From a virus (Duplodnaviria > Heunggongvirae > Uroviricota > Caudoviricetes), in IMG/VR virus record IMGVR_UViG_3300046786_000370, positions 15,927 through 79,926 of that record: DNA of 64,000 bases; one strand, 5' to 3'. Made by a program: the position numbers and the translations under genes. The notes beneath the pieces are model-generated. The model worked only from the letters and a program-made list of their open reading frames with translations. It ran no database searches and was not told where the DNA came from. This document shows, one piece after another, positions 12,957 to 62,436 of this stretch. The stretch's first letter is position 1. Each line of letters begins with the position of its first letter.

Positions 12957-12964
12957 TCATCTAT

Positions 12965-13412: not shown

Positions 13413-13413
13413 T

Positions 13414-14343: not shown

Positions 14344-14344
14344 T

Positions 14345-14863: not shown

Positions 14864-14871
14864 ACAATTAT

Positions 14872-26032: not shown

Positions 26033-26844
26033 TACGTTCTTTTCTTAATCAAATCAATGACAACGCCGCTGGGATCTACTTCCCACCAATTAACACGACC
26101 GAAATGGTATGCCTTTACGTCACCGTGGTGATTGTTATGCCAACATTCGCCTAATACCAATGGAAATAATATAGGTGCGTTGACGCTATTATCTCCGGTT
26201 TCATAATTTTTATAACCTAAGCTTTGGAAATGATTCAAGCAATTAGTTGCCGCATAGCTGTGAAATGTGATAAAGCTAGGAACTATGACAAACCAAATCC
26301 AAAAATCAAAACTAACTAATGCTATGATTAAATTTACTGCCCAGTACATTGGCATATAGTATTTGTGGCAAAATGCGTAAAAAGGTACTTTAAGTAAATC
26401 AATGATGTCTTTATAGTTAATGTCTTTTTCTTCAACTTTCCACAACCATAAGAACCAACTAGTAGCAATACCTTTTTTAGGTGTATGCGGATCTTTGTCT
26501 CCATCGCTATAAGGATGATGTAAGTTTCTGTGTATAGCGGTCCAGAATATAGGACTGCCCTGTCCTGCTAGCATGGCAAAGAATAGTATAACATATTTAA
26601 TAGGTGCCCAAGTTTCAAAACTCTTGTGACTAACATATCTATGATATCCGATAGTCACGCCTAGAACCATGATACAGAAGTAGCCCATGGCCAAATATAA
26701 CCAATAAATGTTTTGCCAATAACCCATGAATGCGCCAACAATAGCACTTACTGCAATTAAATTCATAGGTATTAAACCTCCCCATAAATTTTTATACTTA
26801 AAGGTTAAAGTTATAAATTCTTTGAATGTTAATTTGTTACGCAT
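26032..26844 (-). CDS. membrane fatty-acid desaturase
   Basis: His boxes HRYVSH, HRNLHH and WHNNHH. Confidence 0.75.
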   Translation of the reverse strand: MRNKLTFKEFITLTFKYKNLWGGLIPMNLIAVSAIVGAFMGYWQNIYWLYLAMGYFCIMVLGVTIGYHRYVSHKSFETWAPIKYVILFFAMLAGQGSPIFWTAIHRNLHHPYSDGDKDPHTPKKGIATSWFLWLWKVEEKDINYKDIIDLLKVPFYAFCHKYYMPMYWAVNLIIALVSFDFWIWFVIVPSFITFHSYAATNCLNHFQSLGYKNYETGDNSVNAPILFPLVLGECWHNNHHGDVKAYHFGRVNWWEVDPSGVVIDLIKKRT

Positions 26845-31804: not shown

Positions 31805-33235
31805 TTATTTTAATTGGTCGAAGATGTAATTAGAAATAAATGCATGATGTTTGATGCCCATTTCTTTCCAATTTAAATCTACTACCTTTGTGTTTCTTAC
31901 TTCGTCGTAGTCATAGCCTAAATTAGCATAGTTAGGTATGTACCATGTCATAGGCTTTACCATGTTTATTCGCCTGTCGTCATAGTTTAATTTTTGAGCA
32001 ATCGTGATGGCATCTTTAAAATTGTAAGTGCTGTGTTCCCAATAGTCTGTGTCTGCGGGATTAGGAAATGTTATTCCATAGTCAGAGGCATGTTTTTCAA
32101 ACTCTGTGCCTTTGCCGTTTTTATTTAAAAACAATTGAAGGAAGAACCAATTGTCTGCTACTTTGTTTTCTAACAACCATTCCTGTGTTTCTAACAATGA
32201 TTGTTCTGTTTCATAAGGCAAACCTGCGATAAAACTACAAGTAATAGATACGTCGTCTTTCCAAATATCTTTTAGTTTTAATAAAAAGTCTTTGCCGTAC
32301 TTGCCATTCCAGCCTTTGCCTAGACAAGAACTTGCTTCTGGATGAAAACTTTCTATGCCAAAATATGTTGATTTAAGTCCACTTAATTTTAACAGTTCAA
32401 TGGTATGCGGATTAACGCCGATGACATCTAATCTATTATAACCCAGCCATTCAAATTTAAACGGCATTTTTTCTGCAATTTTAGCCAGCCTTTCTATTTT
32501 AGATGAGCTTTCATTTACAGTATCATCCATGATTTGATATCGAGTAGTGCCAAACATTTCATAGTTACGCAGTAATTCATCTTCGATATGAGACTCATCT
32601 CTTAGATAAGTATCTACCTTTTTTCCCACTAATGGATAGCTACAAAATTTACATCTAAACTGACAGCCACGTGCAAGTTCTATGGGCAACGATTCTCCTG
32701 GCTGAATACTAGCATCATCATAAAAACATGCTGTTAAATTTTTAATATCAAAAGGTGAATATGCTGGTGTATTTTCAGTCTTTTCATTCATGTACTTTAA
32801 AAGACTGTCTTCGGCAAAGCTAACAAATTTTCTCCATTTAAATCTGTCTTCTTTACCCAAGTGGCCTACACCTGTATGGCCTCCTAATAACCAATCTAAC
32901 TTTGGATGTTTGATTTGTAGAATAAATCTAGCTGATTGTACCCATTGCGGTTCATAATACTGATCTTGATTTAAGTCGTAGTAATCTTTATGTTGCCTAT
33001 TTGAGTAAGCAGTAGGCTTCCAAAAAGTTGAACTAACGCCAATGGCAATAGTTTCAGGACCAATATGTTTTTGTGTAATTTCTATTAGTCTTCGAGTGGG
33101 TATAGCATGACAAAAATCAATAACCTTTGCGGTATATCCGTGCTGTCGTAGCCAATGAGCTAGAATGTGCGGTCCGATTGGTCTAGTTACGTTTACTGGT
33201 TCGTTAAAACTATTCCATAAAATTATTTGTGCCAT
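31805..33235 (-). CDS. B12-binding-domain radical SAM enzyme
   Basis: CQFRCKFC (Cx3Cx2C) at residue ~190 after an N-terminal B12-binding-like domain. Confidence 0.65.
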   Translation of the reverse strand: MAQIILWNSFNEPVNVTRPIGPHILAHWLRQHGYTAKVIDFCHAIPTRRLIEITQKHIGPETIAIGVSSTFWKPTAYSNRQHKDYYDLNQDQYYEPQWVQSARFILQIKHPKLDWLLGGHTGVGHLGKEDRFKWRKFVSFAEDSLLKYMNEKTENTPAYSPFDIKNLTACFYDDASIQPGESLPIELARGCQFRCKFCSYPLVGKKVDTYLRDESHIEDELLRNYEMFGTTRYQIMDDTVNESSSKIERLAKIAEKMPFKFEWLGYNRLDVIGVNPHTIELLKLSGLKSTYFGIESFHPEASSCLGKGWNGKYGKDFLLKLKDIWKDDVSITCSFIAGLPYETEQSLLETQEWLLENKVADNWFFLQLFLNKNGKGTEFEKHASDYGITFPNPADTDYWEHSTYNFKDAITIAQKLNYDDRRINMVKPMTWYIPNYANLGYDYDEVRNTKVVDLNWKEMGIKHHAFISNYIFDQLK

Positions 33236-36591: not shown

Positions 36592-36830
36592 ACTCTTTCC
36601 TTTTTAACACGACCAATTCTACTGGCCTTATTCCAATCGTATTTAACACCGTCAGGACATAATCCATCTTTAACGCTGTCAACTCCAAACTTGCCGCAGA
36701 CTTCAAAGTTTGGACCTACAATAGATACAAACTCGTTTAATGCTTTGGCGTGTGCCATTGCTGAATCTAAGTCAGCAAACTCTTTTTCTTTAATTTTAAA
36801 TATCACCTTCTCGTTCCTTAGGAAGAACAA
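36588..36830 (-). CDS. hypothetical protein
   Basis: 80 aa ORF; ATGA-coupled to the release-factor start. Confidence 0.4.
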   Translation of the reverse strand: MFFLRNEKVIFKIKEKEFADLDSAMAHAKALNEFVSIVGPNFEVCGKFGVDSVKDGLCPDGVKYDWNKASRIGRVKKERV

Positions 36831-37287
36831 AGCCCCAATCAGTGGTCACGCCATTGATAGTATGGGGCTCGTTTTCGTCGTAGGTCCAACCCAAGACTTT
36901 CATCATCTTGTGCTTGACCATTAAGTTAGGGCTACGAAAAACTTCAGTGTCATCAAAGCCCATCATCACACCAACTTCGCAGACTGCGCCACTACGGCAA
37001 ACACCTGCTACACAATGAACAACTACATTCATTCTTTTATCAAGAGCATGTTGCAATAGCTTAACTAGCTGTTCTGCTTGAGCATCTGTTACTTTAAACT
37101 CTTCGCCAAAAGCATCGCCTTGCTCAAGATCCAGAAACTCAAACTGATGTGTCTCTTTGAACTTGTGAATAGGACTAGGAAACTCCATAGCAGGATCTAC
37201 AATTTGTATCAGCATGGAATTTTCACCAGCATTGTGATGACGACCCTTTGGGATATCTCCCAAGCTAACATTTTCAATCCATGGCAT
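36796..37287 (-). CDS. Cys-based protein-tyrosine/dual-specificity phosphatase
   Basis: VHCVAGVCRSG (HCx5R) P-loop. Confidence 0.7.
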   Translation of the reverse strand: MPWIENVSLGDIPKGRHHNAGENSMLIQIVDPAMEFPSPIHKFKETHQFEFLDLEQGDAFGEEFKVTDAQAEQLVKLLQHALDKRMNVVVHCVAGVCRSGAVCEVGVMMGFDDTEVFRSPNLMVKHKMMKVLGWTYDENEPHTINGVTTDWGFVLPKEREGDI

Positions 37288-39179: not shown

Positions 39180-40361
39180 ATGATTAATAAGAAACTAGGG
39201 TACTATACTGTAGGCGAATTCGAATTTGATTCAAAGATACAGGCCTGCTTATTTGCTAATAAAAACAATCAAGAAGTTTCTTGGCACTTTAACGAAAACG
39301 TTTTTAAAAACTATCCGTGGTCCAAAGAGCCTAGTGAATCATTGGATCAACTCTACGATCGTCGAACTAGACAACTTAGAGAAGAATACGATTATATCAT
39401 TATCAGCTATAGTGGCGGCGCTGATAGTCATAATATTGTAGAAAGCTTTATACGTCAAGGTTTACACATCGACGAGCTTATAATCAATACCATGGAAAAA
39501 GGCAGTAGCAAATTTACTGTTGTTGATCCTAACATAAAGAATCCAGAAAATGCGGCCGCAGAGCATCAACTACAAACAATACCAAGACTTAAAGAAATAC
39601 AAAATCGTATTCCAAAAACTAAAATAACTATTTTAGACCTGACGGATCACCTGTTTGATAGTTGGCTTAATGTTGGCGATGCCAGTTGGGTTATGGATAA
39701 GAGAGAAGGCTTGAATCCACTAAATGTAACCAGATTTAACTACATGCATTTCAGTGATGTAAGAAAACAATTTGACAAAGACAAAAAGATTGCGCTAATA
39801 CTAGGCGTCGAAAAGCCCAGAACATTTATTCATTCTAATAATAAGTTTTATATACGATTCACTGATAGAGCAACAAACATCATTACAATAGCCGAACACA
39901 TAAAAGAATACCCAAACGCTGTTGTTGAGTATTTTTATTGGAGTCCCGATAGCTGTGATATTTTATGTAAACAAGCTCATGTAATTAAACGTTGGCTGGA
40001 AGCCTTTCCGGAGAATCAGCCAATGTGGTTTCATAAAAATATGACTGCTGAATCTTTTAGATTAACGCACGAACGAATACTAAGAAATCTCATGTATACA
40101 ACGTGGGATCCTACATGGTGGCAAGCAGACAAAGCGACCAAAGACTGGTACAGTGAATTCGACTCTTGGTTTATCAAAGGATATGCGGGTACTAAACAAC
40201 ATAGTATTTGGTTAGAGGGTATCAACTACATAAGAGATAATGCCAGTAACTTTGTTAACAATAGTCACGGTTACGATGATGGACTCAATGTATTTGCTTA
40301 TAACTTTCCTGTAGCAGAAATGAATCCGCCAATCAACGTCGACAAGTTGTTAAACAATTAA
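39180..40361 (+). CDS. PP-loop ATP pyrophosphatase family protein
   Basis: IISYSGGADS (SGGxDS) motif; 393 aa. Confidence 0.6.
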   Translation: MINKKLGYYTVGEFEFDSKIQACLFANKNNQEVSWHFNENVFKNYPWSKEPSESLDQLYDRRTRQLREEYDYIIISYSGGADSHNIVESFIRQGLHIDELIINTMEKGSSKFTVVDPNIKNPENAAAEHQLQTIPRLKEIQNRIPKTKITILDLTDHLFDSWLNVGDASWVMDKREGLNPLNVTRFNYMHFSDVRKQFDKDKKIALILGVEKPRTFIHSNNKFYIRFTDRATNIITIAEHIKEYPNAVVEYFYWSPDSCDILCKQAHVIKRWLEAFPENQPMWFHKNMTAESFRLTHERILRNLMYTTWDPTWWQADKATKDWYSEFDSWFIKGYAGTKQHSIWLEGINYIRDNASNFVNNSHGYDDGLNVFAYNFPVAEMNPPINVDKLLNN

Positions 40362-41290
40362 ATTTTATATTTCTCTGCTCTGAGATCGTTTGGACATGGG
40401 CAATACTTAAATGGACATAGTATATCTTTTTTATCTAAGATAAAATTATTGATACGTCCCAATGATTTTGCCTTACATAAGCCTGCGCTAACTTCGCCAT
40501 TAAATCTAACTACCAAGCTTTGACTGGTTACCTTACAACGCCAGCCTTCAAATTCATTCCAATTATTAATAGTAATTTTACCTAGAGATAATTCTTCTAT
40601 AGAACCATCGTCGAAATAGACCATTGAGTTAACAAAGTTATCAGAACTAGTTGGTGCACCCATGTGAGTTTTGATCCACGTAGACTGTTCGTCTGTGTAT
40701 ATATAATTCTTTTTTGTATCTGTACCTATATAATTTAAAACCTTGGGCATTACAACACCACGAAGACTTGGAGTTATATTGTTATACAATTCTAAAACTG
40801 TGTCCCAGTTAGCAGGGTCGCAACTAAGGTTAAACAGAATAGAAGTGCCCGAATCAACTATAAGCTTTGATACTGCGTTTACTTTGTCTATTTTTGTAAA
40901 CTCTGGATGTAAGGATATTGTTACGTTATCTAAAAAAGGTAACGCTTCTTCCCACCATTCTTCACTTCTAGATCCGTTTGTTGTTACACCTATATAAACT
41001 TTTTCTGAGTGCATGTATTTTATAATGTCTAGAAAATTAGGATGTAACGTTGGCTCACCACCACCAAATTGAAGATTTATATGTGTTCCTTCTTCGGCCA
41101 ATGATTTTAATGTGTTCATAAAGACTGTAATGTCTTCATAGGATGGAAAGCCGGGTACTTTACCAGTGGCAAATTTTCCATTATGTAAAAAATCCGGACA
41201 GTAATTACATTTAAAATTACAAAAATCCGTAAGCATCCAATATACGTTAACAGTTGGTTTCTTAGGTATTATTTTAATAGGCTGTTTCAT
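40358..41290 (-). CDS. radical SAM enzyme with a Cys-rich (SPASM/twitch-like) C-terminal region
   Basis: CNFKCNYC plus GGGEPTL; C-terminal CKAKS...CPFKYCPCP; start trimmed to avoid tRNA-Phe. Confidence 0.6.
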   Translation of the reverse strand: MKQPIKIIPKKPTVNVYWMLTDFCNFKCNYCPDFLHNGKFATGKVPGFPSYEDITVFMNTLKSLAEEGTHINLQFGGGEPTLHPNFLDIIKYMHSEKVYIGVTTNGSRSEEWWEEALPFLDNVTISLHPEFTKIDKVNAVSKLIVDSGTSILFNLSCDPANWDTVLELYNNITPSLRGVVMPKVLNYIGTDTKKNYIYTDEQSTWIKTHMGAPTSSDNFVNSMVYFDDGSIEELSLGKITINNWNEFEGWRCKVTSQSLVVRFNGEVSAGLCKAKSLGRINNFILDKKDILCPFKYCPCPNDLRAEKYKI

Positions 41291-41305
41291 TCTATTATTT
41301 ATAAG

Positions 41306-41380
41306 TGGTGCCACAGACTGGACTCGAACCAGTAACACAAGAATTTTCAGTCCTCTGCTCTACCATTGGAGCTACTGTGG
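41306..41380 (-). tRNA. tRNA-Phe (GAA)
   Basis: Loop CTGAAAA, D-arm GCTCCAATGGTAGAGC. Confidence 0.65.
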
Positions 41381-41945: not shown

Positions 41946-42491
41946 ATGAATAACCCCGACTTTTACCGACCGATACATATTGAAAACCTTAAAGAAATTC
42001 AAGAAGAGGTAATGAATCTGTTGCCAGAAAAATTACTCACTTACTCAAGCTTAACTTATATAGAAAATAATAAAGAAATTTTTTTAAGTTCTAATAAATT
42101 ATCTGATTACTTAAAAAGTAAAAAAATATATGATACTACTGGCGCCATTGCAGTTAATATTACTAAGGGTTTCGGTGCCGGAACTTATCACGTAGATAGC
42201 GGTCCGTATAAACATAGTCTAAATATACCGATTTCTGGCTGCGAAAATACTTGGATTAATTTCTTTAAAGTCAATAGTGATTATACCACCGTTACAGTAG
42301 AAAATGACGGGTTAGCTCATCGTTATTTTAGATACACAGAAGATCAGTGTGAATTAATCTATGAAGCAGAAACATCAGTGCCTTATCTACTTGGAACAAA
42401 AACTCCGCATCGTGTTATTAATAAATCAAACAATACAAGAGTTATGCTATTAGTAAGATTATTTTCTAGTCCTTATATAAATGAGTTATAA
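41946..42491 (+). CDS. small 2OG-Fe(II) oxygenase-like paralog
   Basis: YHVDSGP...NIPI...PHRVIN...RVMLLVR. Confidence 0.5.
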   Translation: MNNPDFYRPIHIENLKEIQEEVMNLLPEKLLTYSSLTYIENNKEIFLSSNKLSDYLKSKKIYDTTGAIAVNITKGFGAGTYHVDSGPYKHSLNIPISGCENTWINFFKVNSDYTTVTVENDGLAHRYFRYTEDQCELIYEAETSVPYLLGTKTPHRVINKSNNTRVMLLVRLFSSPYINEL

Positions 42492-46494: not shown

Positions 46495-46586
46495 TGGTAC
46501 CCCCGGCGGGAATCGAACCCACATGAACCAATTATCTGTTGCTTACGGGATATAAATCCGCCGTTTTACCGTTAAACTACAGGGGC
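46495..46586 (-). tRNA. atypical 92-nt tRNA-like gene (anticodon loop TTTATAT, anticodon TAT?)
   Basis: Good acceptor, D-arm and T-arm, but a 22-nt extra region without a clean variable stem. Confidence 0.35.
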
Positions 46587-47407: not shown

Positions 47408-48166
47408 TTATTTCTTAACTTCTACTAATTTAATTAGCCAAGCTAATGGATCTATTTCCCAGAACTTGTGTCTAGTACTATAATTTTTTGCATCACTATG
47501 GTGATTGTTGTGCCATGCTTCGCCTAGTATGATGGGCCACAACCAAGCATTGTTTCTACTTTGATCTTTTGTTTCATAATTCCTATAACCGTGTGTGTGA
47601 CCAAAATAATTGAAGTTGCTGGTACTAAGCTGAATTAACATAGCAGGAACAATCCAAGACCAATATAAAAATTCCAAGTCAATGATTCCTACAACAACTA
47701 CAACGGGCAACAATAAAAGCATATACCACTTATGTATGAATAACTGTGCGGGAGTCATTAGTTCCTTGACTAAGAAAATCTTCATTTCACCTTCCTGTTT
47801 TTTCATATGACCAAAGCCAAATAGTTTATAGCCAAGGTTGTAAGGGCTATGTGGATCTTTTTCTTCATCACTGTAAGCATGATGTAGTCTATGTAAATAA
47901 ACCCAACCTAATACACTACCGCGGCCCGCCAGTAATGCTATAGCAGAAAACAACCAATGAAGAACAGGATTTAATTCAAAGCTTTTGTGGCTATAATATC
48001 TATGTAACGTCATCCATATGCCCAGGATGTTTAATACATAGAAACTAATTAACATCAGTAATATATTACTTAATGTGTAGTCAACAAAGAATAAACCAAC
48101 AATACTTACTATGAAAAGAAAAATTGTTAGTATTCCTATATTTCTACTAGTAGATCCAAATGTCAT
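47408..48166 (-). CDS. membrane fatty-acid desaturase
   Basis: His boxes HRYYSH, HRLHH and WHNNHH. Confidence 0.7.
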   Translation of the reverse strand: MTFGSTSRNIGILTIFLFIVSIVGLFFVDYTLSNILLMLISFYVLNILGIWMTLHRYYSHKSFELNPVLHWLFSAIALLAGRGSVLGWVYLHRLHHAYSDEEKDPHSPYNLGYKLFGFGHMKKQEGEMKIFLVKELMTPAQLFIHKWYMLLLLPVVVVVGIIDLEFLYWSWIVPAMLIQLSTSNFNYFGHTHGYRNYETKDQSRNNAWLWPIILGEAWHNNHHSDAKNYSTRHKFWEIDPLAWLIKLVEVKK

Positions 48167-48942
48167 TTGCGTATAACTTCTATTATTCTAGCTGTGGGAT
48201 CAAACTCCCACCACTTGCCGCTAGTACCTGTACCAAAATCATAGTTACCAGGACGAGCATGATGGTTGTTATGCCATCCTTCGCCAAATGTAAAAATAGC
48301 GTTGATCCATAAGTTACGACTGTTGTCAGTTGTTTCGAAGTTTCTATAACCCCACTTATGGTTCATATAGTTGCTGGTTGTACTACTCCATACGCTGATA
48401 ACTGCAGGAATAATAACAACGTGAATGGCTAACACAGGATCAATCAATGCCCATAATAGCGTCCATAACAATAGTAAACCAAAGTACCATTTATGCATAA
48501 AAACATGATACTTGTCAAAAATTAAATGACGAATCTTCCATTTGTTTGGTTCATAGTCATATGCGGCTACCAGCATCTTAGGACCGCTGACTAATGGGCT
48601 ATGCGGATCGCCAGGCTTATCGCTGTATTTGTGATGGTCTCTGTGCATACCTACCCATCCAATGGCACTACCTGTAAATGCCAAGGCGCCCCAAGTAGAA
48701 CAAAAGTATTCCCAGAATTTAGTTGTCTTGAAACTTTTATGTGTTAGTAGCCTATGAAAGCCAATGCTAATACCAAAACAGCCGATACCTACGTACATTA
48801 GCACACTTAATAGCCAAAGCGATGCTATTTGTGGAAATGAAAATGCATAGAGTAAAACAATTACTGTTGCAGTAATTTGAACGCCGGGTAAGTATTCTGT
48901 GTTAGACGCAAATACGTTGTTAATGATTCTTTTATAGGACAT
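48163..48942 (-). CDS. membrane fatty-acid desaturase
   Basis: His boxes HRLLTH, HRDHH and WHNNHH; ATGA-coupled to the neighbouring desaturase. Confidence 0.7.
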   Translation of the reverse strand: MSYKRIINNVFASNTEYLPGVQITATVIVLLYAFSFPQIASLWLLSVLMYVGIGCFGISIGFHRLLTHKSFKTTKFWEYFCSTWGALAFTGSAIGWVGMHRDHHKYSDKPGDPHSPLVSGPKMLVAAYDYEPNKWKIRHLIFDKYHVFMHKWYFGLLLLWTLLWALIDPVLAIHVVIIPAVISVWSSTTSNYMNHKWGYRNFETTDNSRNLWINAIFTFGEGWHNNHHARPGNYDFGTGTSGKWWEFDPTARIIEVIRK

Positions 48943-49267: not shown

Positions 49268-49296
49268 ATTATAGCAGTTCTTCGTATTTGTGTCAA
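49268..49296 (-). promoter_or_regulatory. sigma70-like promoter upstream of the Leu/CAT/Arg tRNA trio
   Basis: TTGACAcaaatacg-N-TATAAT with a 17-nt spacer. Confidence 0.5.
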
Positions 49297-49323: not shown

Positions 49324-49510
49324 TTATCCACCCCATCGTAGTACGAACATTAACGCATCTTTTTCGTCGCTGAAAAAATAATCAATCTTAGTATGATCGT
49401 AGGTGTTATATCCATCCTGATGCATATCGTTTGTGATATAACTTGGACAATGTTCTTTGGCCCATACCAAAGGTTCCCAAAACGGATCGTATGGTATAGT
49501 AACTGTCATG
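49324..49510 (-). CDS. tandem-array small protein 1 (C-terminus LRWGG)
   Basis: ATGA-coupled; C-terminal DALMFVLRWGG. Confidence 0.45.
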
Positions 49511-49763
49511 AAAACTTCAATGCAAACATAAATGCTTCTTCGTCGCATTCAAACTCAATAAACTTTTCCATAAGATAACCAGGACTGTGATAATAACCAT
49601 GCTTACAGTTTTCTTCAAGCCACTTGTTTACAATATAATCCTTGTAGCTTATTTGCCACTGTGCTTGTACACGGTCAACAGTTTTAGCGTAGACTACTTT
49701 GTGCAACACCGGCATCTTGAGGATTAGACTGCCAATTTCATGATCCTTGTATGTTACAGTCAT
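49506..49763 (-). CDS. tandem-array small protein 2 (C-terminus LKFS)
   Basis: C-terminal EAFMFALKFS. Confidence 0.45.
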   Translation of the reverse strand: MTVTYKDHEIGSLILKMPVLHKVVYAKTVDRVQAQWQISYKDYIVNKWLEENCKHGYYHSPGYLMEKFIEFECDEEAFMFALKFS

Positions 49764-50176
49764 TCTCCGCCCCAAGTTAGCTTAAACATAAAAGCATCAT
49801 TGACATCTTTAAACGCAAAGAATAACACATCTCCTCCGCCAATATCGTTCATTTCCCAGTTGCCCCAGTAATCTTGGATAACTCGGTGTATATCAGTTTG
49901 CCATTTACCATCACAGTTTTCTTCACACCAAGTCTCTATGGTTGTATATGCTTGTATCCAACTAGGATATCTCGTCCATGGATCACCCTGTGAACTTTCA
50001 AATGCTACAATGTGAGGATAGCCGTGATAATAATCTTTAATACGACTAGCACGTAGATTTCTATCAGGATCGTTAACATCTTGATAGTGTTCTTCTGTCC
50101 AGCCCATTTTCTTTAAGTAAGCGGCATGACGATAAAAGTTCCACTTACTTTTTAAGTCTTTTAAGAATGGTATCAT
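49760..50176 (-). CDS. tandem-array small protein 3 (C-terminus LTWGGE)
   Basis: C-terminal DAFMFKLTWGGE. Confidence 0.45.
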   Translation of the reverse strand: MIPFLKDLKSKWNFYRHAAYLKKMGWTEEHYQDVNDPDRNLRASRIKDYYHGYPHIVAFESSQGDPWTRYPSWIQAYTTIETWCEENCDGKWQTDIHRVIQDYWGNWEMNDIGGGDVLFFAFKDVNDAFMFKLTWGGE

Positions 50177-50415
50177 GACCACCTCAGTACAAATAGCATA
50201 AACTTTTCTTTGTCAACTATTTTGCACGTTACAATATCTTTAAAGTCTTTTGTTAGTTCTAATTCTAGTCCACTGGCATCTTGAAAGTAATGCATTTGAC
50301 CGTCTGATTTGTAACTGCCAGTAAGAACCTTTGCTTCCGGAGGACAATGTGTTATTTTGAAGCCTTCTTCAACGGCCCATTTCCACATTAGTTTTTTTAT
50401 AAATTCTAAATCCAT
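50173..50415 (-). CDS. tandem-array small protein 4 (C-terminus LRWS)
   Basis: C-terminal EKFMLFVLRWS. Confidence 0.45.
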   Translation of the reverse strand: MDLEFIKKLMWKWAVEEGFKITHCPPEAKVLTGSYKSDGQMHYFQDASGLELELTKDFKDIVTCKIVDKEKFMLFVLRWS

Positions 50416-50624
50416 TAACTCCACCTCAGAGCAAATAGTGTAGCATCGCTACTTTCACGAAAGTAAAAATATGTATGTTTAAATTGATAAACAACATTCC
50501 ACCGACCTTTGAATGTACCCAACTGTTCTCCCAACCATACTTCCATTTCAGTAACATTAGTAGTAAACTCATCCCCATTAACCTCAACTTTGTAAGGCCA
50601 CAGTTCTTTCTTTAATGTTCTCAT
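50415..50624 (-). CDS. tandem-array small protein 5 (C-terminus LRWS)
   Basis: C-terminal DATLFALRWS. Confidence 0.45.
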   Translation of the reverse strand: MRTLKKELWPYKVEVNGDEFTTNVTEMEVWLGEQLGTFKGRWNVVYQFKHTYFYFRESSDATLFALRWS

Positions 50625-50926
50625 GACCACTTCAGTGTAAACATTACAGCATCTTCTTTATTTTTAAACAACCATTGCCCTTTAAGCAATTTATAATCGT
50701 CAGTGGCATTGATATGAATCCATTCAGCTGTGTTAGCATACCAATCAATTTCATTGACAATAGAACCATTACCATATGCAGGATTAATATTGGTAACTGC
50801 CCAGCCTTCGTCTTTGAGCACATCAATCATAATTGTATCCACAATCTCTTTATCTATTTGTTTAGCAAGATCTTTTCCAGCCTGATCAAGCATTTCATCT
50901 AAGAGCTTACTCAATCTCCACCCCAT
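50621..50926 (-). CDS. tandem-array small protein 6 (C-terminus LKWS)
   Basis: C-terminal DAVMFTLKWS. Confidence 0.45.
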   Translation of the reverse strand: MGWRLSKLLDEMLDQAGKDLAKQIDKEIVDTIMIDVLKDEGWAVTNINPAYGNGSIVNEIDWYANTAEWIHINATDDYKLLKGQWLFKNKEDAVMFTLKWS

Positions 50927-51144
50927 CGTAACTTAAACAAGACAGCAGGTTCATGTCTTTCGAATTGAATTTCTCTTTTACCATCTTGGCGTGTGTTTAA
51001 CCAGTTAATATAAAATCTATCAAAGCATTCTAATCCCGGGTGTTCCTGTAGCCAACCATACATTTCAGCACTAGGACCAGACACCCATACTGTATATCTA
51101 AATCTAGGATTCTGTGCTCCTCCGCCGCCGTAGTATAGTTCCAT
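50911..51144 (-). CDS. tandem-array small protein 7 (C-terminus LRWGGD)
   Basis: C-terminal PAVLFKLRWGGD. Confidence 0.45.
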   Translation of the reverse strand: MELYYGGGGAQNPRFRYTVWVSGPSAEMYGWLQEHPGLECFDRFYINWLNTRQDGKREIQFERHEPAVLFKLRWGGD

Positions 51145-51488
51145 TATTTGCCAAACCTCAACACTATCATCATATACAGTTCTTCTGGCATGTCGAAGAT
51201 GTTTTTATACATCGTCCAATTAGAATCAATATGTTCCATCCAATCAGTATGATTTTTTCTGATCCACTCTGCAACTTCTGACGAACATTGAACTGTATGC
51301 CACGGTTTGCCGTCTACTTGGGCACTAGTGATAATTTTATATTTTGGTTGTTGGGATTCTTGCATACTATGCCATTGATTAATATATTGATTAATAGTGC
51401 TTTTACCCATGCGACGTCCAGCGGTATAGTGTATGTCTGCTTTATTAAGTCTATCAAGAATATGTTCTTGGAACGGGGTTAATTTCAT
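51144..51488 (-). CDS. tandem-array small protein 8 (C-terminus LRFGK)
   Basis: C-terminal LYMMIVLRFGK. Confidence 0.4.
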   Translation of the reverse strand: MKLTPFQEHILDRLNKADIHYTAGRRMGKSTINQYINQWHSMQESQQPKYKIITSAQVDGKPWHTVQCSSEVAEWIRKNHTDWMEHIDSNWTMYKNIFDMPEELYMMIVLRFGK

Positions 51489-51697
51489 GACCATTTCAAT
51501 ATCGCCAACATTCTATCTTTTTCATTTTTAACATACCATAAGTCTGAACCACTTAAAGTTCCATGATATTCGGTTTCTATGTGATTAGTTTGACACCAAT
51601 CCCAATACATTTTTCTTTGTTTTGAACTGATAGTAAACCCACGAGGATCTCCCACTAATTTAACTCTTCCTTTTTCGACGAAAACTTTAGTTGTCAT
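51485..51697 (-). CDS. tandem-array small protein 9 (C-terminus LKWS)
   Basis: C-terminal DRMLAILKWS. Confidence 0.45.
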   Translation of the reverse strand: MTTKVFVEKGRVKLVGDPRGFTISSKQRKMYWDWCQTNHIETEYHGTLSGSDLWYVKNEKDRMLAILKWS

Positions 51698-52050
51698 GAC
51701 CACATTAGTTTAGCAATTATAGCATAGTCTTGGTATTTTCGCCTAATTTTTATGGTTAACCGATTTTCTGCGGCATCATTGTTAGCTATACCCCAGTTCC
51801 AATCCCAACCTTGTCGACCTACGTGTTTTTCCATCCAGGGTCTATAATGATCGTTGGGATCAGCTGATTCCACAGCAGTCTGACCACCATCTGGGTCTTC
51901 ATCTAGTACAGCCCAGCCAGTGGGCCAACGTACATTGATAATAACGCCTGGCATAAAACGCCACCAAAGTTGGTGTACAATGTTAAGACCGCAGGGAAGA
52001 TATCTTCCCGAGGGCATTTGAAAAAGACCGTTGACTTCCCACTTACTCAT
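51694..52050 (-). CDS. tandem-array small protein 10 (C-terminus LMWS)
   Basis: C-terminal YAIIAKLMWS. Confidence 0.45.
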   Translation of the reverse strand: MSKWEVNGLFQMPSGRYLPCGLNIVHQLWWRFMPGVIINVRWPTGWAVLDEDPDGGQTAVESADPNDHYRPWMEKHVGRQGWDWNWGIANNDAAENRLTIKIRRKYQDYAIIAKLMWS

Positions 52051-52259
52051 GACCACTTCAACTTAAACATTAAATATCCAGGACCTTCTGTTTTTACACT
52101 GAATCCGTATCCTTGCGGACCTGTAAACTCGTGTAGATAGTCTACATCATTTTCCCACATCCATTTAATGATGGAATGGAATTCGGGCATAGTCTTAACT
52201 CTATAAACATCACCACGATGACTGCGATGATAAGGCCAGCGTTCTACTTGAATATTCAT
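52047..52259 (-). CDS. tandem-array small protein 11 (C-terminus LKWS)
   Basis: C-terminal GYLMFKLKWS. Confidence 0.45.
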   Translation of the reverse strand: MNIQVERWPYHRSHRGDVYRVKTMPEFHSIIKWMWENDVDYLHEFTGPQGYGFSVKTEGPGYLMFKLKWS

Positions 52260-52486
52260 GACCATTTCAACTTAAAAAACATAGCATCCTCTGCTTTTTC
52301 AAAAGCAAAGCGACTTAGATAACCTTGATAGTAATTAGAAATATAATTACCCATGGTATTTCTATCAGCCCATATACACAAGCCAAAATGACTGACAGGA
52401 TGTTTACTCCTATCATCGATACCCATTTCGACTACATGCCAGCCGCTTCTTTGGGCTTTTGTGACACTACGGAAATTTGTTGTCAT
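52256..52486 (-). CDS. tandem-array small protein 12 (C-terminus LKWS)
   Basis: C-terminal DAMFFKLKWS. Confidence 0.45.
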   Translation of the reverse strand: MTTNFRSVTKAQRSGWHVVEMGIDDRSKHPVSHFGLCIWADRNTMGNYISNYYQGYLSRFAFEKAEDAMFFKLKWS

Positions 52487-52887
52487 GCTGCCAAAGATCT
52501 AATCATTGTGTAATGATTCCATGCTTCGCGCACACTTTCATTATCTGTCATTGGACTAGGCATAATGTCATACCAAGTGTCTTTTAGGCTATGAGCGTTA
52601 CCCCAAACTTGACTACCCACTACTCTGGGTTGATGTAGCTTGCCATTTTCAAACAACCGTTGAGCTACGGCACAAGCTTCTTCTAAACTGTATGCGCTCA
52701 TATCGTAGGCTTTTTCTCTGGGCATATGAGTGCCTTGATATTGGTAGTAGTATTCTTCAATGACACCCATTAGCTTAACCAAATCTGGACACTTGGTATT
52801 GCTAACAACAAACAATACATCTTCTTCTTTAACTTCGCCAGCAAGGATACTTTTAACACACTTGCCGAGACTTGTTCCGATTTTCAT
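52483..52887 (-). CDS. hypothetical protein
   Basis: ATGA-coupled on both sides; start taken at MKIGTS. Confidence 0.4.
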   Translation of the reverse strand: MKIGTSLGKCVKSILAGEVKEEDVLFVVSNTKCPDLVKLMGVIEEYYYQYQGTHMPREKAYDMSAYSLEEACAVAQRLFENGKLHQPRVVGSQVWGNAHSLKDTWYDIMPSPMTDNESVREAWNHYTMIRSLAA

Positions 52888-53027
52888 TTGTTCTTCCAAA
52901 GAAATTTTAGAGTCAGGCCGTCAATGAGACCTTGTTTAAAAGATGTGTCTGGTGCCCATAAAATGTATCCAACCATAAGGCCCTGCGTAAACATCAAGGT
53001 GGCAACCATTGCTATTTCAATATCGTT
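52884..53027 (-). CDS. small hydrophobic peptide (47 aa)
   Basis: ORF MNDIEIAMVATLMFTQGLMVGYILW... with one TM segment; ATGA-coupled. Confidence 0.3.
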   Translation of the reverse strand, partial: NDIEIAMVATLMFTQGLMVGYILWAPDTSFKQGLIDGLTLKFLWKNK

Positions 53028-53152
53028 CATTCTTTTTCCTTAACGCAAGAGATTTTGTCCGGGCTATACATCATTACAAAATTACCCACACCAAATGCTC
53101 CAAGGATGCCCAGAGCTACAGTAAACGCACCTACAATAGCAAACATTGTTTT
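53027..53152 (-). CDS. small hydrophobic peptide (41 aa)
   Basis: ORF MKTMFAIVGAFTVALGILGAFGVGNFVMMY... Confidence 0.3.
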   Translation of the reverse strand, partial: KTMFAIVGAFTVALGILGAFGVGNFVMMYSPDKISCVKEKE

Positions 53153-53427
53153 CATTCTTCAACTCCAAAATGTAGTATACCACCTCGCCCATTGTCAAAA
53201 TGCTGTTCAATACGCATAGCGTAATGGTCTCCTTCTTTGGTGCCATCCATCACAGCATTAACACATTCTAACACAAGCAACTCGGCGAACTTTTCAATCT
53301 TATCATCCCACAGCTCGATAGATTCTATATGTTGAACAGGATTACTTGCTAAATTTCGCATAGAAATATGTCCGCCAGACTGTTTAACAAGTTCTTTAAT
53401 TCTATCGTTCATCTGGATCTTTCTCAT
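53152..53427 (-). CDS. NERIKEL-family small protein (paralog A1)
   Basis: NDRIKELVKQ...KFAELLVLECVNAV. Confidence 0.4.
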   Translation of the reverse strand: MRKIQMNDRIKELVKQSGGHISMRNLASNPVQHIESIELWDDKIEKFAELLVLECVNAVMDGTKEGDHYAMRIEQHFDNGRGGILHFGVEE

Positions 53428-53617: not shown

Positions 53618-53826
53618 CGATAAGCGTCTGTTTTCAATCCAAGTTGTTGCGCGGCATCTTCACACATTTGTCGAGCATTCTTGCCTATATCAACTGAATT
53701 ATAAAATTCACCTAGAGGTCGCCAATCAGCTACCTTGCCGCCTATACCATGACGATCACCGCCTACAGCAACTACCGTCCAAATCATTAGAATGTAAATC
53801 ATTGTGCCTCCGCTGTCATAGGACAA
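53599..53826 (-). CDS. hypothetical small protein
   Basis: 75 aa ORF. Confidence 0.35.
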   Translation of the reverse strand: MSYDSGGTMIYILMIWTVVAVGGDRHGIGGKVADWRPLGEFYNSVDIGKNARQMCEDAAQQLGLKTDAYRCVRSK

Positions 53827-54116
53827 TCACTTGTTATTGCCGCGGCGTGACCTTTTGGACATACATCTTTAGTTCTGTCAATACCGCACTTGGGGCAAAC
53901 CCAACCTTTAGATTTTTCAACTCCGAAATGTTGTTTAAGCATATATGAGATATGATTACGTGAATCCGTTTCCCACACTTCCACTTTATTAATACATTCC
54001 TTAATAATCAACTCAGCATACTTTTCCAAAGCCTTTTCCCACTTGTCTCGCCTGGCGCCAAGGCCGAAGATTTCGAGTTTACTTTCTTTTTCAAATTCTC
54101 TTAATCGTTCGTTCAT
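53799..54116 (-). CDS. NERIKEL-family small protein (paralog A2) with a C-terminal Zn-ribbon
   Basis: MNERLREFEKE...KYAELIIKECINKV...CPKCG...CPKGH. Confidence 0.4.
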   Translation of the reverse strand: MNERLREFEKESKLEIFGLGARRDKWEKALEKYAELIIKECINKVEVWETDSRNHISYMLKQHFGVEKSKGWVCPKCGIDRTKDVCPKGHAAAITSDCPMTAEAQ

Positions 54117-54878: not shown

Positions 54879-55676
54879 TTATTTGTTCAACATCAAACCA
54901 GTCATGTTACTAGGAACAATGATAGTATTAACCTTACCAGCTTTGATACCTTCGGAGATGTTAAGCGCGGCTTGTGCGTTCATGTAAGCGATAGAGCTAG
55001 CACTTTGGTTACTCAATGCCTGCATACGACGAGCTTCTGCTTCAGCTGTCTTAACTTCAACTTCTTTCTGCTTGAGCTCGTTCTTAGCACGAACCAAGTC
55101 GTTGGCACTTTGAACCACGCTATCAGCAGGAACAACATTACGAACAAGAACTTGACTGATAGTCAACGAACCATCTAGCTTTTCTTCTACCAATGCCTTT
55201 TGCATCAGTTCTTTAACTTTGGTTTCGATAGATTGACGATTGTCTGCCATATCCAACGCTTCGTAATCACGTGCGGCTTTATAGATACTATTGCGAGCAA
55301 TTTGCATGACATAGTTATACATCAAGTAAGTGTCGCCTTTGTGTTCAATGTGAAATGCTCGGCTCTTAGAGTTATACAACTCCGCGACCTGTGCTTGGTT
55401 CAAGTTATAGATAACCACAGCATCAAAGTCTTTCATTGTGCTATTGTCTTTGGCCAAAGGAGTCATGTCATCAAGTTTGACGTTAACGTCTTTGACTGGG
55501 AAAGTCATAACCTCGCCGATGATAGTTTGATTCCAAGAACCAGGCAAGAGTTCTTGTGTACTAACTTGTTTACTGATATCACGACGGAGACCAACCTCGC
55601 CGGTTTCAATGCGAGTACAACCTGTTGCGACTACAACTGCGGCCATAATCAAACCAATTTTAAAAACGTTTTTCAT
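54879..55676 (-). CDS. SPFH/band-7 domain lipoprotein
   Basis: Lipobox VATGC followed by an SPFH-like coiled-coil region. Confidence 0.55.
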   Translation of the reverse strand: MKNVFKIGLIMAAVVVATGCTRIETGEVGLRRDISKQVSTQELLPGSWNQTIIGEVMTFPVKDVNVKLDDMTPLAKDNSTMKDFDAVVIYNLNQAQVAELYNSKSRAFHIEHKGDTYLMYNYVMQIARNSIYKAARDYEALDMADNRQSIETKVKELMQKALVEEKLDGSLTISQVLVRNVVPADSVVQSANDLVRAKNELKQKEVEVKTAEAEARRMQALSNQSASSIAYMNAQAALNISEGIKAGKVNTIIVPSNMTGLMLNK

Positions 55677-55773: not shown

Positions 55774-55950
55774 TAGAAGAGAATTACTAAACCAAACATT
55801 AGCAAGATTGCTACTGTAGAACTAATTATAGCTTGAACTGCTATTTTTGTCAAGTTAAGTGCTTGCTTACCTGACATCTTTTGTACTGCGATCATGCCCA
55901 AATAAACGAGCACACTCAGTACCAAAAACAAAAATACTACTCTAATCATA
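55774..55950 (-). CDS. small membrane protein (58 aa)
   Basis: ORF MIRVVFLFLVLSVLVYLGMIAVQ... with two TM segments, immediately downstream of the SPFH gene. Confidence 0.3.
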
Positions 55951-58247: not shown

Positions 58248-59096
58248 TTAAATTTCAATAAACATTTTAACGTTCCAACCACTGTCAGGTTCGTGTCCTT
58301 CATAGCCACGTGGGTTACATACGACACGAGTTTCACCAATAACATAATCAAAACAATGATGAGTATGACCATGTGTCCACAGTTTAATCTGTGGACGATC
58401 CATAATGAATTCTTCTAAGTTGCTGTGGTAAGCACCATTCATTATGTATTCTCCCTTGTACCACTCGTGAGTGCTTTGATGACTAGGACTGTGATGCCCT
58501 ACTACAACGCACTTCTTATCTTTGTTTTCATCAACTATCAATTTAATATAGTCAACTGTTTGTTTATGACGCATAGCGGTATCAACTGGCTTTAGTCGAG
58601 TAAAATCCAAATCGTCTCGTTTGATAACTTTGTAGTCATTCATCATATCACGGACGCCATGTAGCGTCAATGGATCACCTTTGTTTAGGTCAGTCCATAA
58701 TGTTCCGCCAACAAATACTACATCGTCGATGACTTTACAGTCACGCTCTAGGAAATAAACGTTAGGAAACTTAGCACATTCTTTTCGCAGATGCGTTAAA
58801 CTACCAATCCAACGTCCATGATAAAATTCATGATTGCCTGCTACATAGATGACATGAGGGAATTGAAAACTCACACGTTTTAAGAAGTCCCTAAACCTTA
58901 AAGCAGTTTGTTGCCTGCGTCCAAGATCAGCAAGGTTGACATTGCTGTACATACCGTAATCCATTTCTGGATGGTCGTGGAGATCTTGAGCAACCATAAT
59001 ATCTCCACTAAGGATGAGAACATCGCAGTTCTCATCATTTGAGATATTAACGTCACTGAACTCTAAATGGAGGTCTGATACTACTTTAATTTTCAT
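58248..59096 (-). CDS. calcineurin-like metallophosphoesterase
   Basis: DLH...GDI...GNHE...GHH...GHTH motifs. Confidence 0.6.
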   Translation of the reverse strand: MKIKVVSDLHLEFSDVNISNDENCDVLILSGDIMVAQDLHDHPEMDYGMYSNVNLADLGRRQQTALRFRDFLKRVSFQFPHVIYVAGNHEFYHGRWIGSLTHLRKECAKFPNVYFLERDCKVIDDVVFVGGTLWTDLNKGDPLTLHGVRDMMNDYKVIKRDDLDFTRLKPVDTAMRHKQTVDYIKLIVDENKDKKCVVVGHHSPSHQSTHEWYKGEYIMNGAYHSNLEEFIMDRPQIKLWTHGHTHHCFDYVIGETRVVCNPRGYEGHEPDSGWNVKMFIEI

Positions 59097-61532: not shown

Positions 61533-61849
61533 TATTCTAATCCGTATTTTTTAAGTTCATCGGAATCTGCAACAATCACAGCATCTTTAAATCTGTCGGC
61601 ACACTTCTTTTTGATCTCATTGATATCAGAACCTTGTGCAATAAACCTATCAGTTTCTCTTTCATAAAGATAAAACACACTTCCATGTTTTTCTACATTA
61701 ACATGAATAATTTTATCCTTAAGCTTCTTTGTCAAGTCGTCGATTTCTTCTTGAAGTATCTCGTTTTTTGCTTGAAGATAAAATAAGATAAACTTAGATG
61801 CTAGCCAAACTAAAGCGCAGATGATAATAAATTCTACAGCAAAATCCAT
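61532..61849 (-). CDS. hypothetical protein with an N-terminal TM segment
   Basis: 105 aa ORF. Confidence 0.4.
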   Translation of the reverse strand: MDFAVEFIIICALVWLASKFILFYLQAKNEILQEEIDDLTKKLKDKIIHVNVEKHGSVFYLYERETDRFIAQGSDINEIKKKCADRFKDAVIVADSDELKKYGLE

Positions 61850-62436
61850 TATCTGCTTTCAATAACTTTGTCTGCCAAACCATATTCCATTGCTTGATGT
61901 GCGCTCATGAAATAATCTCGTTCCATGTCACGAGCAAGAGTTTCGTAGTCTTTGCCACGGCTATTATGTCTGACATAAATGTTAGTAAGATTCTTCTTCA
62001 TTTCCAAAATCTCATTAACTTGGATCTGCATATCCGTAGCTTGTCCACGTGCTCCGCCACTGGGTTGGTGAATCATGTGTCTTGCGTTGGGAAGGATGAA
62101 CCGTTTACCCGGCGCTCCGGCTTGGGCGAGTAAACTACCCATTGAGCAGGCCTGCCCCATAACATAAGTGGATACATCTGGTTTGATAAACTGCATTGTA
62201 TCATAAATTGCCATCCCGGCTGTGACACTACCACCTGGGCTGTTAATAAACATTGTAATATCTCTGCTGGCATCTTCGCTTTCCAAGAATAGAAGTTGAC
62301 CTACAATAAGGTTAGCCATTTGATCATGGACTTCGCCTTCCAATAAAATAACACGATCTCGCATTAAGCGACTATACAAATCCATGGCACGTTCACTGTT
62401 GCCAGTACGTTCAAGGACCATTGGGACTAGACTCAT
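61849..62436 (-). CDS. clpP: ATP-dependent Clp protease proteolytic subunit
   Basis: GQACSMGS (catalytic Ser) and HQP (catalytic His) blocks; 195 aa. Confidence 0.8.

Follow-up and report, generated by a model that had tools for sequence, protein, structure and literature searches.

Twelve consecutive minus-strand ORFs at positions 49324-52486 of the analysed phage DNA (64,000 nucleotides at full length, hereafter the window) form an array that may best be understood as the in-place expansion of one small-protein domain family. Profile searches indicate that eleven of the encoded proteins are homologous, and the family that they define is previously undescribed. Pfam, PHROGs and NCBIfam returned nothing usable for the window members, for 147 diverse relatives or for the members in cultured phages, which upholds the view of an earlier note on this DNA that the proteins belong to no named family; a sequence profile search of the PDB with the family gave no match, and no account of the family was found in the literature searched. 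The family is thus without a Pfam, PHROG or NCBIfam model and without a solved structure. The positions of the genes and of the flanking features, taken from the ORF list of the window, which confirmed the run of twelve, are collected in Table 1.

Table 1. Array genes and flanking features of the window; sizes are given with the overlap ATG as start, and E is the value against an HMM built from external relatives only
Feature	Positions	Strand	Start	Size (aa)	E	Remarks
m12	52256..52486	-		76	3e-13	member; start codon overlaps the stop codon of the 138-aa ORF upstream
m11	52047..52265	-	52259 (ATGA), probable	70	3.6e-6	member
m10	51694..52056	-	52050	118		array resident; doubtful member by sequence
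m9	51485..51703	-	51697	70	7.9e-7	member; identical to P0030
m8	51144..51494	-	51488	114	1.8e-5	member; orthologs P0005 and P0045
m7	50911..51144	-		77	3.9e-9	member; TAATG junction with m8
m6	50621..50926	-		97-101	3.4e-11	member
m5	50415..50630	-	50624	69	1.6e-12	member
m4	50173..50424	-	50415 (TAATG)	80	5.9e-4	member
m3	49760..50182	-	50176	138	1.7e-12	member; long N-terminal extension
m2	49506..49775	-	49763	85	8.4e-16	member
m1	49324..49548	-	49509	61	2.6e-12	member; last array gene
Upstream ORF	52483..52899	-		134-138		coupled to m12; not family
Sigma-70 promoter	55825..55853	-				perfect consensus (TTGACA-17-TATAAT); nearest such site upstream of the array
Sigma-70 promoter	49268..49296	-				perfect consensus; directly downstream of m1, ahead of tRNA-Leu

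The genes are chained head-to-tail by start/stop overlaps, eight of the array-internal junctions being ATGA and two TAATG. The single exception is the m7-to-m6 junction, which is TTGA, or a 16-nt overlap instead if the upstream ATG is used as start. The earlier count of 11 of 12 junctions with TCATGA or TAATG is therefore correct, provided that it takes in the ATGA by which the non-family upstream ORF is joined to m12; this ORF gave no family-HMM hit and no Pfam or PHROG match. The promoter at 55825..55853 is probably the start of the transcription unit of the array, and the one behind m1 would mark where this unit ends. Perfect sigma-70 consensus sites number 12 in the window versus 0.05 expected by chance; an early-gene status of the array, inferred from these 12 promoters, was considered and rejected.

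The C-terminal tails quoted earlier proved accurate on re-inspection. Among the 572 ORFs of 40 aa or more in the window, a pattern derived from these twelve tails themselves, F-x-L-[KR]-W-x, matched the 12 of the array and no others, and the array proteins end in W-S, W-A or W-G-G. Leave-one-out HMMs recovered nine of the twelve at E<1e-3, and the external-only HMM, built without window sequences and from training sequences all less than 40% identical to the tested member, placed 11 of the 12 at the top 11 ranks among the 572 ORFs (E 8e-16 to 6e-4), the best non-family ORF of the window reaching E 0.53. The weakest of the 11 supported members is m4 (leave-one-out E 0.06). A tail shared beyond chance, as had been proposed, is thus borne out for eleven proteins; none of the profiles detected m10 (E 33). 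The identity of the last residue (S, A, L, Q or T) follows from the NNA-TGA overlap, which dictates the last codon. The codons of the tail Leu and Lys/Arg vary freely, junction DNA is 61-73% identical between copies, and m1 retains the tail with no coupled gene downstream; the tail is conserved at the protein level. With 20-30% identity among the paralogs and no DNA repeats, the copies are ancient.

The N-terminal regions are less uniformly divergent than described earlier, because 25-40 residues before the tail they share another conserved motif, W-[CL]-x-E-N; it is the N-terminal strands, loops and add-on segments that seem to vary from paralog to paralog. The tail consensus is D-A-x-[ML]-F-x-L-[RK]-W, and the fuller family pattern reads W-x-E-N ... 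F-x-F-x-x-E-x-D-A-x-x-F-x-L-R-W. AlphaFold models m2 as a compact beta-beta-beta-alpha-beta-beta-alpha domain (pLDDT 94.3, pTM 0.79) in which W-[CL]-x-E-N sits on the first helix and the tail forms the last one (residues 74-84, block pLDDT about 95). Profile matches in other proteins cover 44-60 residues (HMM positions roughly 14-64), more than the tail alone, and about 10 of the 147 representatives consist of two tandem copies of the domain, with no other known domain; there the tail motif also occurs internally with a linker after it, which means that it need not be a free C-terminal tag. The conserved part is accordingly predicted to fold into a compact alpha/beta domain, about 50-60 residues long, whose conserved positions, mostly hydrophobic or aromatic, look like a scaffold core. 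The earlier picture of a constant C-terminal tag behind a diversified N-terminal part, and with it that of a degron, finds no support; the tail is predicted instead to be a helix within a folded domain.

The same order of elements follows two N-terminal helices in the model of m10 (pLDDT 79.6), which with m2 makes up the two members modelled for the shared-fold comparison. Alignment of m10 to the family by hhalign was in register but weak (E 0.003-0.004, probability 8-11%). Its homologs number 804 at E<=0.01, the best 120 of the 804 being 62-87% identical, and roughly half of the related loci have an m10-type gene within their arrays; a search of 185,579 species genomes with m10, which also served to look for a bacterial host, found no relative, so that the m10 type appears to be viral only. 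This protein belongs to a separate, highly conserved family residing within these arrays, and that it is a very divergent member of the array family, as the models suggest, is only probable.

Two N-terminal add-ons recall other phage proteins. The N-terminal helix of m6 (DLAKQIDKEIVDTI) resembles a gp23 spine-helix segment in some relatives: Pfam PF07068 (Gp23) was matched by three of the 147 relatives, over a 60-residue stretch only, and by none of the window members, while P0201 of the m6 subfamily exceeded the gathering score (29.2 versus 24.4 bits) and matched, when the phage collection was searched by tblastn, a single sequence over nearly its full length, a major head protein (E 0.3). 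The HMM of the m6 subfamily gave no significant match to a real gp23-type capsid protein, and after these Pfam, tblastn and HMM comparisons a capsid-fragment identity of the subfamily was rejected as unproven. The N-terminal extension of m8 carries a Walker-A-like motif, AGRRMGKST, conserved within its subfamily; a terminase or P-loop fragment was also considered and dropped, with weak P-loop matches only (AAA_14, E 0.013).

Clustering at 50% identity divides the family into 345 clusters. All 55 loci from related contigs, many of them 230-374 kb long, carry it; between 1 and 27 copies were scored within +-10 kb, and most loci have at least four. About 80% of the 604 ORFs scored in these loci end in a start/stop overlap (ATGA 343, TAATG/TGATG 78, GTGA or TTGA 60). 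Comparison of the 55 loci, as had been suggested, confirmed that copy number and content differ strongly among related phages, and even close relatives have arrays that are unlike in size, content and gene order; m2 retrieved more orthologs than any other member (45-95% identity). Against GenBank phages, the array region matched by blastn at its tRNAs alone, and tblastn of m2, the family consensus and m10 gave nothing significant, but a weak Phosso match (E 2) proved real by HMM scan. Cultured carriers, in which the proteins are always annotated as hypothetical, are the T4-like jumbo phages Phosso (Sinorhizobium), PA5oct (Pseudomonas) and Atu_ph07 (Agrobacterium). In the regions examined, PA5oct has two members (EST35_0274 and EST35_0275) and Atu_ph07 one (gp313); none was found in positions 1-50 kb of PA5oct, and the PA5oct members fall outside its named early region (PMC7318152). 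The family occurs in T4-like jumbo phages of one clade ('group 2.2', Rak2/PA5oct/Atu_ph07-type) and in their uncultured relatives, in line with the gene blocks that the related loci L001 and L005 share with the cultured phages; no capsid protein was seen for the window's own phage.

The array genes code for soluble proteins, each of 60-140 aa. The family has a median pI of 5.6, with 80% of its proteins below pI 7, and contains 4.8% Trp; neither catalytic motifs nor signal peptides were found in it. Pairwise dN/dS between orthologs is 0.14-0.22, which shows that these are real genes under purifying selection. An arms race, as envisaged earlier, finds no support in these values or in the ancient paralogs; nonetheless the arrays often gain, lose and reorder genes. 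Positive selection on a hypervariable beta-hairpin of m2 was considered as well, and its median dN/dS (0.21 versus 0.13 elsewhere) was not convincing. In PA5oct, EST35_0274 and EST35_0275 are without the ESI-MS/MS note present on neighbouring genes, and the virion mass spectrometry table of Atu_ph07 lists gp311 and gp314 but not the family member gp313 (PMC6102473). Our best guess is that the family is non-virion, being absent from the two available virion proteomes, where small proteins are easily missed.

From the scaffold-like core, the variable N-termini and the acidic, Trp-rich, non-catalytic and non-virion character of the proteins, we tentatively infer a set of binding modules with paralog-specific host or phage partners. 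The proteins would be stoichiometric, mostly acidic, non-virion modules, each paralog recognising a different partner; made together during infection, they may modulate host physiology or defences, and the arrays may expand and contract with host range. Several observations tell against binding modules. Purifying selection across whole genes and the deep divergence of the paralogs are unlike a fast arms-race signature; m1, m2 and m10 look like conserved core genes of this clade, so that phage-cycle housekeeping fits equally; and the members found in PA5oct, Phosso, Atu_ph07 and L005, one of the related loci, have replication and proteostasis genes as neighbours and lie outside the early host-takeover region. 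That the paralogs instead bind each other, as hetero-dimers or hetero-oligomers through exposed beta-sheet edges and in ratios fixed by coupling, is unlikely, since array composition and order vary freely in close relatives, which is hard to square with an obligate complex, since PA5oct and Atu_ph07 have so few members in the regions examined, and since coupling also joins the non-family upstream ORF and is thus not family-specific. A more speculative and rather improbable version of binding would make the family an interchangeable adaptor repertoire, in which the variable N-terminal half seizes different targets and the conserved helix pair docks one common partner; candidates for that partner are the phage Clp/FtsH machinery or the m10-type protein. 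If true, this would amount to a modular, copy-number-dependent reprogramming of the host proteome by a jumbo phage, and the subfamilies with capsid-like or P-loop-ATPase-like N-termini might then act on the capsid protein or the ATPase as decoys or regulators.

The genomic neighbourhood suggests another role, raised already in the earlier note, that of adaptors or substrates of the phage Clp machinery; each paralog would deliver a different target to ClpXP/ClpAP or would itself be degraded via its C-terminus. ClpS, SspB and ssrA-type C-terminal tags are known Clp adaptors and degrons, and the array proteins resemble them in being small, near clp genes and conserved at the extreme C-terminus. 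Linkage to proteostasis genes is conserved in PA5oct, where clpX, clpS, hsp20, ftsH, groES, dnaJ and clpA form the block with the members, in the related locus L001, where clpS, hsp20 and clpP surround the array and the order S21, hsp20, clpS, clpP is as in PA5oct, and in the window, where clpP and a Band7/SPFH gene lie upstream. The distance to clpP is 9.4 kb in the window, close to the 10 kb stated earlier, about 7 kb in L001, and about 1 kb in PA5oct, whose members lie downstream of it. These three cases are not independent because the phages are related, so that the link amounts to shared synteny. The members of Phosso, Atu_ph07 and L005 all adjoin a DnaE-like fragment and PhoH instead, with an AAA/clamp-loader gene in the same setting in L005 as in Phosso and Atu_ph07; GroES is near the members of both these phages, and a clamp loader near that of Atu_ph07. 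In the array proteins the C-terminus is confidently predicted to be a structured domain helix rather than a disordered tag, it recurs internally in two-domain proteins, its endings are not LAA and it is, to our knowledge, unlike the LAA-type ClpX degrons; neither ClpS nor other adaptors appeared among the fold matches listed, and no sequence match to adaptors was seen, all of which makes a Clp role quite unlikely. Still less probable is a role as small regulators that bind RNA or a ligand in the manner of KH or ACT domains, perhaps tied to the adjacent tRNA clusters: both domains are two-layer alpha/beta sandwiches, but the array domain shows neither the type I KH arrangement (beta-alpha-alpha-beta-beta-alpha, GXXG loop) nor that of ACT (beta-alpha-beta-beta-alpha-beta, ligand-binding dimer interface), having no GXXG loop and no final ACT strand, and it is acidic and without sequence similarity to them. 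A role in the virion or in its assembly, as decoration, scaffold-like or head-associated proteins, has the gp23-like helix of the m6 subfamily and the scores of P0201 in its favour and seems highly improbable. A nucleotide-level artefact, in which SD-like GAGGTG/AAGTGG and the re-initiation ATGA impose the tail on unrelated ORFs, would account for the [KR]-W codons being G-rich and SD-like at a distance of 3-9 nt from the ATG that follows, and for the last codon being forced to NNA; it is scarcely credible, since homology continues beyond the tail for more than 45 residues in the upstream direction, codon usage varies at the conserved Leu and Lys/Arg, the tail is kept in m1 and in internal copies, and the fold is predicted confidently.

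Among known systems, anti-CRISPR loci, the early small ORFs of T4 and the host-takeover module of SPO1 are phage anti-defence or host-takeover clusters, likewise runs of small, mostly acidic, non-virion and non-enzymatic proteins in accessory regions. They consist of unrelated proteins, whereas the array holds paralogs of one domain, with no aca-like regulator evident, and PHROGs, BFVD and PDB searches gave no anti-defence match (Acr, Tad, Acb, Ocr and others). The MGF of ASFV and the tandem paralog arrays of poxviruses are lineage-specific multigene families, and like them the array has multiplied one small domain in tandem on a single strand, in an accessory region of a very large viral genome, with copy number and content varying among relatives. 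It differs in fold and sequence family, in the chaining of genes by start/stop overlaps, and in having old copies under purifying selection rather than recent 'accordion' duplicates. Bacillus phage G has a comparable zinc-ribbon expansion of roughly 35 copies (Iyer et al. 2021, PMC7824862). In polymorphic toxin systems, the poly-immunity loci (Zhang et al. 2012, PMC3482391) are also arrays of small alpha+beta paralogs that would be specific binders or inhibitors, but here the setting is strictly viral and has no toxin gene nearby. No toxin domain occurred among the window and locus genes scanned, and Pfam immunity families (Imm*, SUKH, WapI) gave no significant match, one of the 147 representatives reaching WapI at E 0.0098, below the cut-off.

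Jumbo phage genomes consist mostly of unannotated small genes, and this family makes up a noticeable share of them in a widespread clade, now defined as one easily recognised domain family of 345 clusters with up to 27 copies in 20 kb. Since members occur in culturable phages with genetic hosts (PA5oct with Pseudomonas aeruginosa, Phosso with Sinorhizobium meliloti and Atu_ph07 with Agrobacterium), their function is directly testable. Should each paralog prove to bind host factors of its own, the arrays would correspond, among phages, to the host-range and immune-evasion multigene families of large eukaryotic viruses.

The array of twelve consecutive minus-strand ORFs described in the earlier note is present as reported, and with starts set at the overlap ATGs its members, m12 (first in transcription) to m1 (last), encode proteins of 61-138 aa. 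The surrounding window is AT-rich (35-42% GC), is coded on the minus strand nearly throughout, and holds 34 tRNAs and many auxiliary genes. When the strand was read directly, eight internal junctions were ATGA overlaps, two were TAATG, and m7-m6 was either TTGA or a 16-nt overlap. Since ATGA also couples the 138-aa ORF preceding the array to its first member, the earlier count of 11 coupled junctions out of 12 was reproduced. The C-terminal tails (F-x-L-[KR]-W-x) had been quoted correctly, and a regular expression built from these same 12 tails matched the twelve array ORFs and none of the 560 other window ORFs of at least 40 aa. Perfect TTGACA-N17-TATAAT sites occur 12 times in the window, all on the minus strand, against 0.05 expected by chance, and nine of them extend to the common form TTGACACAAA; host sigma-70 RNA polymerase probably transcribes the entire window. 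Because one such promoter lies upstream of the array (55853-55825) and the next directly after m1, the array would make up the distal portion of a single transcription unit that also holds the Band7/SPFH gene.

Aligned with MAFFT, the members share another conserved element besides the tail, W-[CL]-x-E-N, which lies 25-40 residues N-terminal of it. Leave-one-out profiles recovered nine of the twelve at E<1e-3, and a stricter profile, made from external sequences only and excluding window sequences and any at least 40% identical to the tested member, detected 11 of 12 (E 8e-16 to 6e-4). These 11 were the top 11 of 572 window ORFs, the best unrelated ORF having E 0.53. Searching 1.84 billion representatives exhaustively with the profile gave 345 clusters at E<=1e-3, with matches usually covering profile positions ~14-64 of 64 and nearly always finishing within one residue of the protein C-terminus. 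P0216, a 565-aa repeat protein among the profile matches, was rejected as a false positive. Word-indexed searches yielded 293 relatives, mostly m1 and m2 orthologs, and no Pfam domain in any of them. No description of the family turned up in the libraries and papers searched, in agreement with the earlier failure to recognise a named family.

The tail is conserved at the protein level. Its Leu and Lys/Arg codons vary among copies, junction DNA between copies is only 61-73% identical, m1 retains the tail with no coupled gene downstream, and two-domain relatives carry an internal tail copy followed by a linker; together with homology past the tail, this variability and retention make it extremely improbable that the tail is an RBS or overlap artefact. 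Its final residue, by contrast, is a by-product of the start/stop overlap, since the overlap requires NNA before TGA and endings across 604 family ORFs are accordingly WS, WA, WL, WQ, WT and others. The [KR]-W codons form a G-rich, SD-like stretch serving the next gene, which is a dual use and not an alternative explanation of the tail.

The structure of m2, predicted from an alignment of 114 homologs and paralogs, was modelled confidently (pLDDT 94.3, pTM 0.79), with strands at 5-10, 13-18, 21-27, 57-59 and 66-71 and helices at 40-52, bearing W-L-E-E-N, and 74-84. Since helix 74-84 is the tail, the model builds the tail into the fold of a small domain rather than attaching it as a tag, and in structural terms the earlier reading, with a variable N-terminus mounted on a constant tag, is wrong. 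Conserved family positions are largely hydrophobic or aromatic and are placed in both helices and in the strand preceding the last helix, and the paralogs differ in N-terminal strands, loops and extensions. The m2 subfamily also has conserved Cys and His residues, arranged as E-N-C-x-H ... H ... C. Foldseek found no significant match to the m2 fold in BFVD; the top non-significant entries came from uncultured Caudovirales and from the jumbo phages BcepSauron and Atu_ph07, and were small proteins without a characterised function.

The sole array ORF missed by the family profiles is m10 (E 33), which has a strongly conserved family of its own, with 804 homologs at E<=0.01, the best 120 of them 62-87% identical over full length. 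Relatives of this family were found neither in 185,579 bacterial and archaeal species genomes nor in GenBank phages, and it sits within arrays at about half of the related loci. Its AlphaFold model (pLDDT 79.6) has two N-terminal helices followed by beta-beta-beta-alpha-beta-beta-alpha, a predicted element order identical to that of m2, and hhalign gave a weak in-register alignment of its last 50 residues to the family (E 0.003-0.004, probability 8-11%). It is thus probably either a very divergent member or a conserved array companion, and a fold common to all twelve is suggested by homology and the m2 and m10 models.

Two subfamilies carry N-terminal additions. In m6 and two relatives, P0201 and P0274, an N-terminal helix is similar to the spine-helix segment found in major capsid proteins of the gp23 type; P0201 scores above the Pfam Gp23 gathering score, and the m6-subfamily profile against a real capsid protein was not significant. 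The m8 subfamily, including the orthologs P0005 and P0045, has a conserved Walker-A-like [AG]GRxxGKST in an extension of ~45 residues, too short for an ATPase and matching P-loop families only weakly (AAA_14, E 0.013).

By Pfam, the auxiliary set of the window comprises a Na+/dicarboxylate symporter, a solute-binding protein, isocitrate lyase, three radical-SAM proteins, three fatty-acid desaturases, Band7/SPFH, a metallophosphoesterase, ClpP and a dual-specificity phosphatase.

Coordinates of features in the window and in related loci
Feature	Coordinates	Strand	Remarks
Twelve-ORF array	49324-52486	minus
m6	50621-50926	minus
m8	51144-51494	minus	Walker-A-like motif
m10	51694-52056	minus
Second small-paralog pair	53152-53427, 53799-54116	minus	just upstream of array, unrelated to family; 30% identity, E 5e-9; EK[FY]AEL[LI][VI]xEC[VI]N; no match in Pfam or PHROG
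Perfect promoter sites	13384, 24286, 35054, 35140, 36085, 37876, 47225, 49268, 55825, 56654, 60727, 63962	minus
34 tRNA genes	21838-49219	minus	several clusters
tRNA-Ile(tat)	46495-46586		92 nt, unusually long
Auxiliary genes	1298-2572, 2582-3400, 6480-7691, 16024-17043, 26032-26844, 31805-33235, 36796-37287, 40358-41338, 47408-48942, 54879-55676, 58248-59096, 61849-62436
Three paralogous ORFs, 181-184 aa	21280-21834, 22685-23230, 41946-42491	plus	beside tRNA clusters; 32% identity, E 1e-22; by eye HxD...H...R, 2OG-Fe(II) oxygenase-like
393-aa ORF	39180-40361	plus	SGGxDS PP-loop motif by eye; no Pfam match; kept in 8 related loci
211-aa ORF	5557-6192	plus	GH19-type lysozyme look by eye
L012 (related locus), m8 subfamily	11720-12175		Walker-A-like motif
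L005 (JACCDS011156173.1, 290 kb)	1-6800, 11341-16038		curli, CHASE2 and Suf genes beside array
L001 (360-kb metagenomic contig)	1-2016		S21, hsp20, clpS
L060 (PA5oct)	3389-5338		S21, hsp20, clpS

Contigs bearing relatives are phage-like and often huge, several from IMG/VR reaching 230-374 kb; a 360-kb ENA contig also encodes IF3, S21, hsp20, clpS and clpP, and a 290-kb NCBI contig curli and Suf genes, a DnaE-like fragment and PhoH. Near the L005 array lie CsgG, CsgF, a curlin-repeat protein, a CHASE2 guanylate cyclase and an almost complete Suf Fe-S assembly operon. When the window and 55 related loci (+-10 kb each) were scanned with the family HMM, 604 member ORFs were identified, nearly all on the same strand within a locus and about 80% ending in a start/stop overlap. 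The copy-number comparison proposed earlier gave 1 to 27 copies per locus, mostly at least 4, and the arrays vary in which genes they hold and in what order: L006, from a close relative, reads m12-m11-m3-m2-x-m1, the seven genes m10 to m4 missing, and L001, from another, m8-m10-m5-m3. Orthologs are under purifying selection (median pairwise dN/dS 0.14-0.22); the first beta-hairpin of m2 is its most variable part, with no clear positive selection there, and the arms race suggested earlier is unproven.

Among cultured phages, Sinorhizobium phage Phosso (469 kb), first found through a weak tblastn match, has 6-9 members by HMM (E 5e-12 to 5e-3) surrounding a DnaE-like fragment, GroES, an AAA ATPase and PhoH. 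The synteny of this locus identifies the clade as the T4-like jumbo phages of 'group 2.2' in Iyer et al. (PMC7824862). Atu_ph07 (490 kb) has one member at a Phosso-like position, gp313 (E 2e-5), and PA5oct two adjacent ones, EST35_0274 and EST35_0275 (E 5e-10 and 5e-8), ~1 kb downstream of clpP; in all three phages the members are annotated 'hypothetical protein'. The first 50 kb of PA5oct, which contains the genes reported as early (PMC7318152), has no family member. The order S21-hsp20-clpS is common to L001, whose region also has IF3, and PA5oct, and the window's clade is therefore placed among PA5oct/Rak2-like jumbo phages.

Family proteins are small, soluble, mostly acidic (median pI 5.6) and Trp-rich (4.8%), with no catalytic motif or signal peptide, and the domain fusions observed are all with extra copies of the same domain. 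We tentatively favour, at somewhat less than even probability, a conserved scaffold with variable surfaces, the paralogs being stoichiometric, paralog-specific intracellular binders whose number expands and contracts with host changes. Under this proposal, the shared scaffold would display surfaces differing from paralog to paralog, each protein would bind specific partners within the infected cell, and the family would grow or shrink as hosts change. That the paralogs instead form hetero-oligomers with one another is unlikely. The proximity to ClpP pointed out earlier reflects conserved synteny of a proteostasis/replication block, and a family of Clp adaptors or substrates is quite unlikely. 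KH/ACT-like binding of RNA or ligands has little probability, and virion or assembly proteins are very improbable; the published MS table of Atu_ph07 virion proteins includes gp311 and gp314 and lacks gp313 (PMC6102473), and EST35_0274 and EST35_0275 lack the ESI-MS/MS note present on neighbouring PA5oct genes. That a small domain expands in tandem within one lineage of giant viruses is a known phenomenon; an adaptor or decoy role, if true, would sharply raise the interest of this family.
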